Shown here: positions 56,456 through 58,560 of the stretch, piece after piece
Numbering within the stretch: the stretch's first letter is position 1
Layout of the letters: every line of letters begins with the position of its first letter
DNA from: an uncultured delta proteobacterium
GTDB taxonomy: Bacteria; Myxococcota_A; Polyangia; Fen-1088
Direction: 5' to 3'
DNA: 64,000 nt
Assembly (NCBI GenBank): GCA_963824555.1
Contig: CAWGPW010000025.1
Coordinates: 30,469 to 94,468, forward strand
Translations under genes and position numbers: made by a program
Notes under the pieces: generated by a model
What the model was told of the DNA's origin: nothing
What the model saw: only the letters and a program-made list of their open reading frames with translations
Database searches by the model: none

Positions 56456-58560
56456 ATGCGCTCAGCACCTCTCGTCCTCAGATCGGCACTCGTCGGCCTC
56501 GTCGCTACTTTTGCGCTCTTCGCCCCCGGCAGCGCCTCGGCGCAGTATGGCACCGGTGGCACCATCGGATACGGCACCGGCGGTATCACGGGTTCCACGA
56601 CGCTCGCCGCCACGGACTTCACCATTCTCTTCGAGGGCTACTTCAACGGGCAGTGGGTGCAGATGAACTCGACCACCCAGCAGTACTATTTTAACCAGGC
56701 GCGCTGCCTGTGTGACACGGACCCCAACGGCGAGTTCCAAGTGATTGTCCAGCCAGCTTCCGGCGCCGGAGCGAAAATTCAGACTGCAGCTCGAAAGCAG
56801 CCTGACGGGAGGGGGGCAAGGCGCATCGTACCTATTCGCGAGCGCCCAGGGTTTCGACTGTCTTAATCCAAACGCTGTTATCGGTTACGGCCTCGCAAGC
56901 GTATGCACCAATCTCATCGACCCGGGCAGCGGCTACAAGGGAGCACTCTTCTCGAGCATGGCGGCCTTCGGGAACGTGAATTACATTCCAAGTGGTCCGA
57001 TTCCCGTTGCCTACCTCTTCAACTCCCTGAGCAACCCCACATGTGGTTACAATGGCACTTGTCATTCGGCCGCCCAGTGCAGGACGACGAGCACGCAGAC
57101 GAATCTTCAATTCTGGGTGCAAACCAACTCTGGCGTCGCTCCGGACTTCGACCCCGGTCCATCGGCCACCGTGAGCCTGGTGGGTTATGTTCCGGTCGAC
57201 ACCCGCCGACGTCGTAGCCGAGGGCGGCAACGAGGCGCTGAAGGTGAGTTGGGACTGGGGTGGGGTGAACATCGCCACCGACACGACGCTGAGCGGGGTT
57301 CAGATTTTTTGTCAACGCGGCGCCACCGATCAGGTTTTCCCTACCGGCTCGTTTGGTGCGGCCTACCAGACCCCCGCGACGCTGTGCCCGAACAATGCTG
57401 CCGCCGTAGCCGCCGCCACCAGCACCGGCGGTCCGTTCTCGAATCTCGATCCCAGGTATCTGTGCTCGGGACTCATCCCCGCCGTCTCGAACAGCTACCG
57501 CATCACTGGGTTGCAGAATGGAATCCAGTACGGCGTCGGCGTCGCGGCGGTAGACAGGTACGGCAACATCGGAGCCATCGCCAACGTCATCTACGGCATA
57601 CCGATCCCGACTGTGGATTTCTATTCGGAGTACAAGACCGCCGGCGGGTCCGCCCAAGGTGGCTTCTGCGCGCTCGAGCGCTGGCATTCTCGGCGAAGCG
57701 CGGCGGTCGGGATCGGCTTGGCGGGATTGGCTCTCATGCTCGTGGTAAGACGGCGATCGAAAAAGGGCCCTCCTGGCATCGGACCGGTCGTCCTGGTGCT
57801 TGCGACGGGCACGCTTCTGACTGGCCAGGCGCGCGCCCAGGAGGTGTACCACGACAGTTCCTTCCTCGAAGACGACGCCACCGAGGCATGGGGGGGAAGC
57901 CCGCGGCAGTACGCCATCGAGGCGCGCTTCGGGCTGTACACGCCGGACGTCGATTCGGAATTCAGCGGATCGGGAAAGCAGCCGCAGGCGTTTGTCTTCG
58001 GCAGCAAACGACGGCCCATGTGGCAGATGGAATTCGACTGGGAATTTCTGCAGGACTTCGGCACCCTCTCTTTGGGCGGCGTGGTTGGCTACTACAAGGA
58101 AAACGCACTGGCCTGCAAGCAGTCCGGGCTCCAGGCCAACGGCAGCTGCGACGATCGCTCGGGGGACAACACCAGCCTGCGCTTGATTCCATTGGCCGCG
58201 CTGCTGGTCTACCGTATGGATGAAGGCGCCACGCACTGGAAGATCCCCCTCGTGCCCTATGCGAAGATCGGGGTCAACTACACCCTTTGGACCATCACCA
58301 ACGGAAACGGCGACGTGGCGGACGCCGGTGGCGGCCACGGCCAGGGCGCCACCATGGGCTGGCAAGCGGCGGCGGGGCTTTCCGTGCAACTCGACTTCAT
58401 CGATCCGAGCTCCGCACGTGGGTTCGATGCCGATTCCGGCGTGAATCATACCTATGTCTTCTTCGAGGTCGACCACGTGGATGGCTCGGGCCTCTACCGC
58501 AAGGACGTCCTGCACGTCGGCGACAACACCTGGTTCGCCGGGTTGATGTTCGAGTTTTGA
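56456..58560 (+). CDS. Secreted Cys-rich/FN3 protein + internal MYXO-CTERM-like anchor + second signal peptide + outer-membrane beta-barrel (fusion); frameshifts at ~56780 and ~57197
   Basis: Three collinear ORFs (56300.., 56745.., 57187..). Signal MRSAPL...ASA-QY; FN3-like EGGNEALKVSW...YRITGLQNGIQYGVGVAAVDRYGN; GGSAQGGFC-TM-RRRSKK; PVVLVLATGTLLTGQARA-QE; barrel ending FAGLMFEF. Confidence 0.8.

Follow-up and report, generated by a model that had tools for sequence, protein, structure and literature searches.

In Myxococcus xanthus, sgmI (MXAN_2561) and MXAN_2562 are separate genes that are apparently co-transcribed and have similar fitness profiles (bioRxiv 10.64898/2026.08.28.747804). Here we describe a gene from an uncultured soil myxobacterium (a delta proteobacterium, Fen-1088) in which a passenger resembling SgmI is followed, within one protein, by a barrel of the MXAN_2562 family, with a MYXO-CTERM-like tag and a second signal-like segment lying between the two. 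The gene spans 56456-58560 of a 64,000-nucleotide (nt) stretch of contig CAWGPW010000025.1 (positions 30,469 to 94,468; assembly GCA_963824555.1), hereafter called the window; coordinates are those of the window unless a contig is named, and all features of the gene lie on the plus strand. It shares with the M. xanthus pair the barrel family, an FN3-containing passenger and the order of the two parts, and the alignment with the end of the SgmI model takes in the last ~85 passenger residues and with them the tag. It differs in being one open reading frame (ORF) with an internal tag and signal peptide, in a passenger that falls below the equivalog cut-off of the SgmI family and in a different Cys-rich N-terminal domain.

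Two further M. xanthus systems are close in design. The MYXO-CTERM receptor gene traA lies directly upstream of, and overlaps, the gene for its partner TraB, an outer-membrane barrel with an OmpA domain; this resembles the separate-gene versions described below, whereas the protein families differ and TraA/TraB is encoded by two genes. MXAN_5598 is an adhesin with an internal MYXO-CTERM tag followed by an outer-membrane barrel and an OmpA domain, which Guo, Haft and Wall (mBio 2025, PMC11980579) read as a fused TraA/TraB-like pair with an N-terminal part proposed to be processed and anchored at the surface; in the available part of their article such internal-tag cases are called rare, and that part makes no mention of an internal signal peptide or of a signal peptidase I step for MXAN_5598. 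The design of that protein (surface passenger, internal tag and outer-membrane barrel in one ORF) is the same as that of the window gene, whereas the passenger and barrel families differ and the OmpA domain is absent here. The concept of an internal-tag adhesin-barrel protein is therefore already published, in one paragraph and for another family, and the present fusion adds to a lightly described kind. In the literature that we searched we found no description of an SgmI/MXAN_2562 fusion, of its abundance or of a conserved internal signal-peptidase site, and the words 'fusion', 'fused' and 'internal' are absent from Haft's myxosortase preprint. MYXO-CTERM tags are defined as C-terminal and cleavable signal peptides as N-terminal; both stand in mid-chain here, and are conserved there across many myxobacterial lineages. 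This points to a simple and barely studied route by which a bacterium could obtain two envelope partners in 1:1 amounts from one precursor.

Passenger, tag and barrel of the window gene

The ORF listing and the raw sequence both give 57187-58560 as a single open frame of 457 amino acids (aa) without a stop. It contains, in order, an FN3-like domain, the motif GGSAQGGFC, a 17-residue helix, the basic cluster RRRSKK, a signal-like segment ending ARA↓Q and a barrel, and the protein ends in GLMFEF before the stop codon at 58558-58560. The C-terminal part is clearly a member of the MXAN_2562 family: the NCBIfam model NF040596 (MXAN_2562_fam) aligns to aa 242-457 over profile positions 2-208 of 208 with 212.7 bits (cut-off 100), and the piece starting at 57736 scores 214.4 bits. 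The mature barrel is placed at 57838-58557 (240 aa, ending MFEF). AlphaFold2, with alignment A1 as input, was run on the closest full-length homologue, P0002, whose barrel region shares 84% identity with that of the window copy. The model has a mean predicted local distance difference test score (pLDDT) of 82.4 and a predicted template modelling score of 0.72, and residues 473-690 form eight long strands with pLDDT around 90. Foldseek searches of the PDB with this barrel returned the small barrels Ail (3qrc), OmpX (1qj9), OmpA (1bxw), OmpW (2f1t) and OprF (4rlc). Neither Pfam nor NCBIfam gave an OmpA-family match in the window protein, which ends with the barrel. All three copies of the barrel family in this genome sit in long open frames.

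The passenger has a Cys-rich N-terminal domain followed by FN3-like domains. The SgmI model NF045522 (MXAN_2561_fam) aligns aa 101-189 of the open frame to profile positions 220-303 of 304, running through the tag that belongs to the family itself. The FN3-like domain of the window copy lies at 57198-57642; the corresponding region of the P0002 model forms beta-sandwiches and matches tandem FN3 structures in Foldseek, and the Pfam fn3 model alone stays below threshold at 12.6 bits. By score, the passenger is a distant, SgmI-like relative and not a member of the equivalog family. At the N-terminus, the ATG at 56456 opens a Sec signal peptide (56456-56542, MRSAPLVLRSALVGLVATFALFAPGSASA followed by Q), and P0009, the intact orthologue encoded by genome G008, begins in the same way with an equivalent signal. 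An earlier note, made from the letters of the window alone, had outlined much of this layout. Its coordinates, including the uninterrupted frame, agree with ours, as do its signal peptide at the true N-terminus and its C-terminal domain of about 240 aa ending in Phe and folding as a beta-barrel; the two families that it named, MXAN_2561 and MXAN_2562, are both real and both recognizable here.

The join between passenger and barrel was compared across the 92 fused homologues of alignment A1. The tag signature GGSAQGGFC occupies 57643-57669; its Cys (57667-57669) is invariant (92/92) and the preceding Gly residues are each kept in 90 to 92 of the 92. A predicted stop-transfer helix follows at 57697-57747 (SAAVGIGLAGLALMLVV, a 17-residue uncharged run corresponding to the helix at 402-421 of the P0002 model), and then the RRRSKK cluster at 57748-57765, which would be shared between the tag, as its cytoplasmic tail, and the internal signal, as its n-region; R423 of this cluster is at least 90% conserved. 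Median lengths are 18 residues for the uncharged run of the tag helix (range 14-21), 8 for the charged loop (range 4-14) and 21 for the second uncharged run, which extends up to position -1 of the predicted cleavage site. The short charged loops fit the suggestion of the earlier note that the arginines of the tag double as the n-region of the second signal. Despite the variable lengths of loop and helices, the frame is never broken in any of the 92.

All three regions of a signal peptide (n, h and c) can be recognized in the internal signal, which reads RRRSKK, GIGPVVLVLATGTLL and TGQARA↓Q, and small residues occupy positions -3 and -1. Its h- and c-regions (GPPGIGPVVLVLATGTLLTGQARA) lie at 57766-57837, and the predicted signal peptidase I cut falls after 57837. 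Position -3 is A in 86 homologues, V in five and T in one, position -1 is A in 90 and G in two, and position +1 is Q in 80. A further 264 residues follow the tag in the same frame, so that it is not C-terminal in this protein; 14 other canonical MYXO-CTERM tags in the genome pass the cut-off, and the genome has one myxosortase core (NF040914, 135.1 bits against a cut-off of 100; G000:C16:519712-520020).

Fused and separate forms among myxobacteria

Fused homologues were sought at several distances. Every same-genus orthologue whose junction was read (genomes G001-G005 and G007-G012) keeps one frame, ~690-740 aa long, all the way from the signal peptide to the barrel, and this genome has two more intact fused genes, the paralogues on C38 and C26, each with an N-terminal signal of its own. 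A stop codon or change of frame between the Arg cluster and the barrel, which the earlier note had named as a finding that would refute its idea, was not seen in these close homologues. A search with the barrel region against 5.8 billion predicted proteins gave 349 matches at E <= 1e-10; among the best 120 clusters nearly all are 640-757 aa long and fused, and about 100 metagenomic protein clusters have the fusion. The short clusters that were read start in mid-sequence or sit on contigs of 1-4 kb, consistent with partial genes at contig ends. A phmmer search against 1.84 billion cluster representatives gave 1173 matches, and the best 150 clusters of these (at 50% identity) comprise 75 with the barrel alone and at least 52 that are fused.

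Within a sample of 301 genomes of the phylum, 186 have an NF040596 match above cut-off. Junctions were read individually because the length of an open frame is a poor proxy for fusion in this GC-rich phylum, where several frames of 500-680 aa proved to be the shadow of a separate upstream gene. Sixty junctions with long open frames were read in this way, and they divided into 33 fusions with a Cys tag, 11 fusions with a CFI-box-CTERM domain and 16 separate genes with a shadow frame. Cys-tag fusions account for all junctions read in families f28 (19/19) and f25 (8/8) and also occur in f41, f23, f29, f57 and f71. The fusion is present in at least 11 myxobacterial families, and the fused state makes up about a third or more of the MXAN_2562 family. 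The earlier note had asked whether homologues elsewhere were also fused; the same-genus genomes, the two paralogues, the metagenomic clusters and the many families all answer that they are. Judged by these comparisons, the fusion is genuine, old and widespread: a known two-gene module encoded here by a single gene.

Genomes with separate genes indicate how the two forms correspond. The upstream ORF in these genomes lies in another frame and ends in GGFC, a helix, RRRR(x)R and a stop, exactly where the signal peptide of the barrel begins. The separate ORFs abut at this point. The join of the fused form is homologous to the tag that closes one protein together with the signal peptide that opens the next, and the fused form differs from the two-gene module in lacking this stop and in having both parts in one frame. 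At least two separate-gene loci (L016 and L006) have a stop/start overlap, ATGA or GTGA, and this overlap suggests translational coupling as well as a route to the fused form by a single indel. The occurrence of one-gene and two-gene forms in related genomes provides natural test cases for the action of myxosortase and signal peptidase I at internal sites, and the same cases bear on the role of the uncharacterised MXAN_2562 barrel for SgmI-like adhesins.

A second kind of tag is found in families f59, f19, f60, f22 and f68, in which the SgmI-like passenger ends in CFI-box-CTERM (NF041770, 79-94 bits, cut-off 40) instead of MYXO-CTERM and continues without a change of frame into an Arg cluster, a signal-like segment and an MXAN_2562-family barrel (loci L072-L076, L078, L091 and L102-L105; proteins P0191, P0251, P0182 and P0167). 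CFI-box-CTERM stands in mid-chain in these proteins, and a second 'C-terminal' sorting domain is therefore used internally. A third architecture was seen in family f11 at loci L029 (G034) and L086 (G290), where a separate barrel gene has its own signal peptide and, between this and the barrel, a long Pro/Ala-rich linker. Fused proteins are named by NCBI as, for example, 'MXAN_2562 family outer membrane beta-barrel protein [Polyangia bacterium]'; such naming as an outer-membrane beta-barrel protein, by gene callers and family models, hides the passenger.

Predicted processing and competing explanations

We consider it fairly likely that this gene is the SgmI/MXAN_2562 two-protein module in a single-gene form, with a precursor that would be cut by signal peptidase I and by myxosortase. 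The N-terminal signal would start export, the tag helix would halt transfer and leave the Arg cluster in the cytoplasm, and export would resume at the next hydrophobic segment, for which this Arg cluster would double as the n-region. A cut by signal peptidase I after ARA would then release the barrel for insertion by the beta-barrel assembly machinery (BAM) and leave the passenger as an ordinary MYXO-CTERM substrate anchored in the inner membrane. The passenger would be lipidated at the tag Cys, cut by the myxosortase of this genome and moved to the surface, while a two-helix hairpin of ~55 residues would be discarded. The fusion would give 1:1 synthesis of the partners, replacing the ATGA/GTGA overlap of at least two of the two-gene versions. 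About evenly balanced, in our estimate, is the broader proposal that tags of the Cys/myxosortase class (MYXO-CTERM here, CFI-box-CTERM in other families) work in mid-chain, and that the cassette of helix, Arg loop and internal signal defines a widespread class of envelope polyproteins, from each of which two inner-membrane proteases would release a lipid-anchored surface protein and a dedicated 8-stranded barrel; this barrel may act as the outer-membrane receptor or anchor of the passenger.

The topology has precedents. In leader peptidase (Lep) of Escherichia coli, an N-out/C-in helix is connected by a basic cytoplasmic loop to an N-in/C-out helix, after which comes a large exported domain. 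Lep shows that Sec can make the required hairpin, whereas its second helix is uncleaved, unlike the one proposed here. The Gn-Gc polyproteins of bunyaviruses consist of an ectodomain, a transmembrane anchor, a short cytosolic tail, an internal signal peptide cut by signal peptidase and the next ectodomain (PMC7926653); this is the same topology by analogy only, with no homology, and viral glycoprotein polyproteins use the machinery of the eukaryotic endoplasmic reticulum, unlike the present module. With respect to the tag, MrtX cleaves that of TraA and needs the tag Cys, and TraA with a FLAG epitope placed after the tag seems still to be processed, as the signal of this C-terminal FLAG is close to the limit of detection except in an mrtX deletion (PMC11980579).

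Several observations weigh against a processed precursor of this kind in the window copy. The internal MYXO-CTERM-like anchor of the earlier note stands as far as its tripartite architecture (GGFC, the 17-residue helix and RRRSKK) and its alignment to the SgmI tag are concerned, but fails with the generic MYXO-CTERM model: TIGR03901 gives 8.1 bits against a cut-off of 20 and covers the helix part only. The equivalog cut-off of NF045522 (150 bits) is likewise missed by the window fragment (49.9), by P0009 (50.6) and by P0002 (57.5). The AlphaFold2 model has low confidence in the internal signal segment (region 426-462 of P0002), an ATG and a GTG lie shortly upstream of the Arg cluster in the window copy and may allow some separate synthesis of the barrel, and this copy carries two indels in the space of 415 nt, which is dense even for this assembly.

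Alternative accounts of the junction have to explain the same conserved features. Internal initiation at the ATG (57736) or the GTG (57742), together spanning 57736-57744, or at equivalent codons elsewhere, could make the barrel precursor separately, with the read-through fusion as a tolerated by-product; both codons are in frame, 4 and 2 codons before RRRSKK, and would open a plausible signal (MLVVRRRSKKGPPGIGPVVLVLATGTLLTGQARA). The DNA of 45 fused junctions was scanned for start codons over the basic cluster, as far as its last basic residue, and over the 10 preceding codons, and some ATG, GTG or TTG is present in 34; the other 11 have none of the three, including those of the same-genus genomes G002, G004, G007, G009 and G011. 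Where such codons are present they are Val, Leu or Met codons of the Val/Leu-rich helix at varying positions, only 9 of the 92 homologues have a Met close to the basic cluster, and the frame is kept across the length-variable join in every fused homologue, which independent cistrons would not need. This explanation is improbable. The earlier note had posed a choice between a polyprotein and an internal ATG, and the polyprotein is favoured by the conserved A-x-A↓Q, by a basic cluster that tag and signal have in common and by the fact that no internal start is conserved. An uncleaved single chain, either autotransporter-like or tethered to the inner membrane with the hydrophobic segments as a structural linker, is suggested by an order of passenger and then barrel that superficially resembles type Va autotransporters. 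It is very hard to reconcile with a model of 8 strands and not the 12-stranded barrel with a linker helix through its pore, with a join homologous to the tag and signal peptide of separate genes in which A-x-A is conserved, or with the ~25 residues from the cleavage site to the first strand, which cannot span the periplasm from an inner-membrane anchor. That the fusion itself is an artefact, a draft-assembly error in which the stop between two genes was lost or an indel was introduced there, gains some colour from the indel errors of this assembly, two of them in this very gene. The same in-frame join recurs, however, in all same-genus junctions read, in both paralogues, in many families and in about 100 metagenomic clusters that are independent of one another and come from several sources, and these comparisons effectively refute an artefact. 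The invariant Cys, the retention of the -3/-1 rule, the absence of a conserved start and the kept frame favour a single processed precursor.

A different question is whether the window copy is itself intact. The gene crosses three frames (56456.., 56745.. and 57187..), so that its start at ATG 56456 and the frame of 57187 are not in register. When 56456-58560 was aligned by MAFFT to the intact G008 orthologue (84% nucleotide identity), all gaps were multiples of three except for two single extra bases in the window, one at ~56786 (within 56783-56786, inside CAGACTGCAG, against CAGGGT-CAG in G008) and one at 57197 (inside GGTCGACACC, against GGT-GACACC). They divide the N-terminal Cys-containing domain into a first part in frame A (56543-56785), collinear with the intact G008 and P0002 orthologues, and a second part in frame B (56787-57196), with a translation that matches G008 (LENSLTGGGQGASYLF...VSLVGYVPV); frame C begins with the FN3-like domain. 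If both insertions were real, the copy would be a decaying pseudogene that yields no passenger and could express its barrel at most; both insertions lie outside homopolymers, and the two intact paralogues could compensate. Set against this, the remaining 1374 nt are open and match the family at full score, and the corrected frames contain no stops and no further non-triplet gaps relative to G008. A frame-tracking hidden Markov model (HMM) run over the whole 6.48-Mb assembly (44 contigs), the counts of which are rough estimates, found 130-210 same-strand frame switches without a nearby stop codon, with a +1:-1 ratio of 2:1 that is the reverse of that at true gene boundaries (1:1.8). Because of this genome-wide excess of +1 shifts, which includes a DAGK/YegS-like gene in the same window, the insertions are most simply read as assembly errors, and they are probably that rather than real mutations; the close relatives of this genome are long-read metagenome-assembled genomes (MAGs). 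Two indels so close together nevertheless leave real pseudogenisation of this copy as a less likely but appreciable possibility.

Assembly and composition of the window

The frame-tracking HMM suggests residual single-base insertions in perhaps 2-3% of the genes of this MAG. The DAGK/YegS-like gene is split by a +1 shift at window position ~48573 (G000:C25:79041), with a complete DAGK_cat domain before the shift and YegS_C (profile positions 19-115) after it. A WD40-repeat gene on the minus strand appears to change frame in mid-repeat at ~3225 (G000:C25:33693), likely through another +1 indel, and neither frame has a stop within 45 nt of this junction. Both insertions in the fused gene lie inside 6-bp palindromes, CTGCAG (56783-56788) and GTCGAC (57194-57199). 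An origin in methylation motifs was considered for them and set aside, as frameshift candidates across the genome showed no convincing enrichment for palindromes.

The GC content at third codon positions (GC3) is low in the N-terminal domain of the window copy (56456-57200), at ~0.69-0.78 compared with ~0.87 in the training genes, with the frame B part at ~0.69. The N-terminal domain of the intact G008 orthologue is likewise GC3-poor (0.66-0.74), which indicates a property of the gene and not its decay. Finally, cleavage at either predicted signal-peptidase site of the precursor would expose an N-terminal Gln (ASA↓Q at 56543 and ARA↓Q at 57838), a feature that recalls the 'Q-rule' of Bacteroidetes (PMC5837995).

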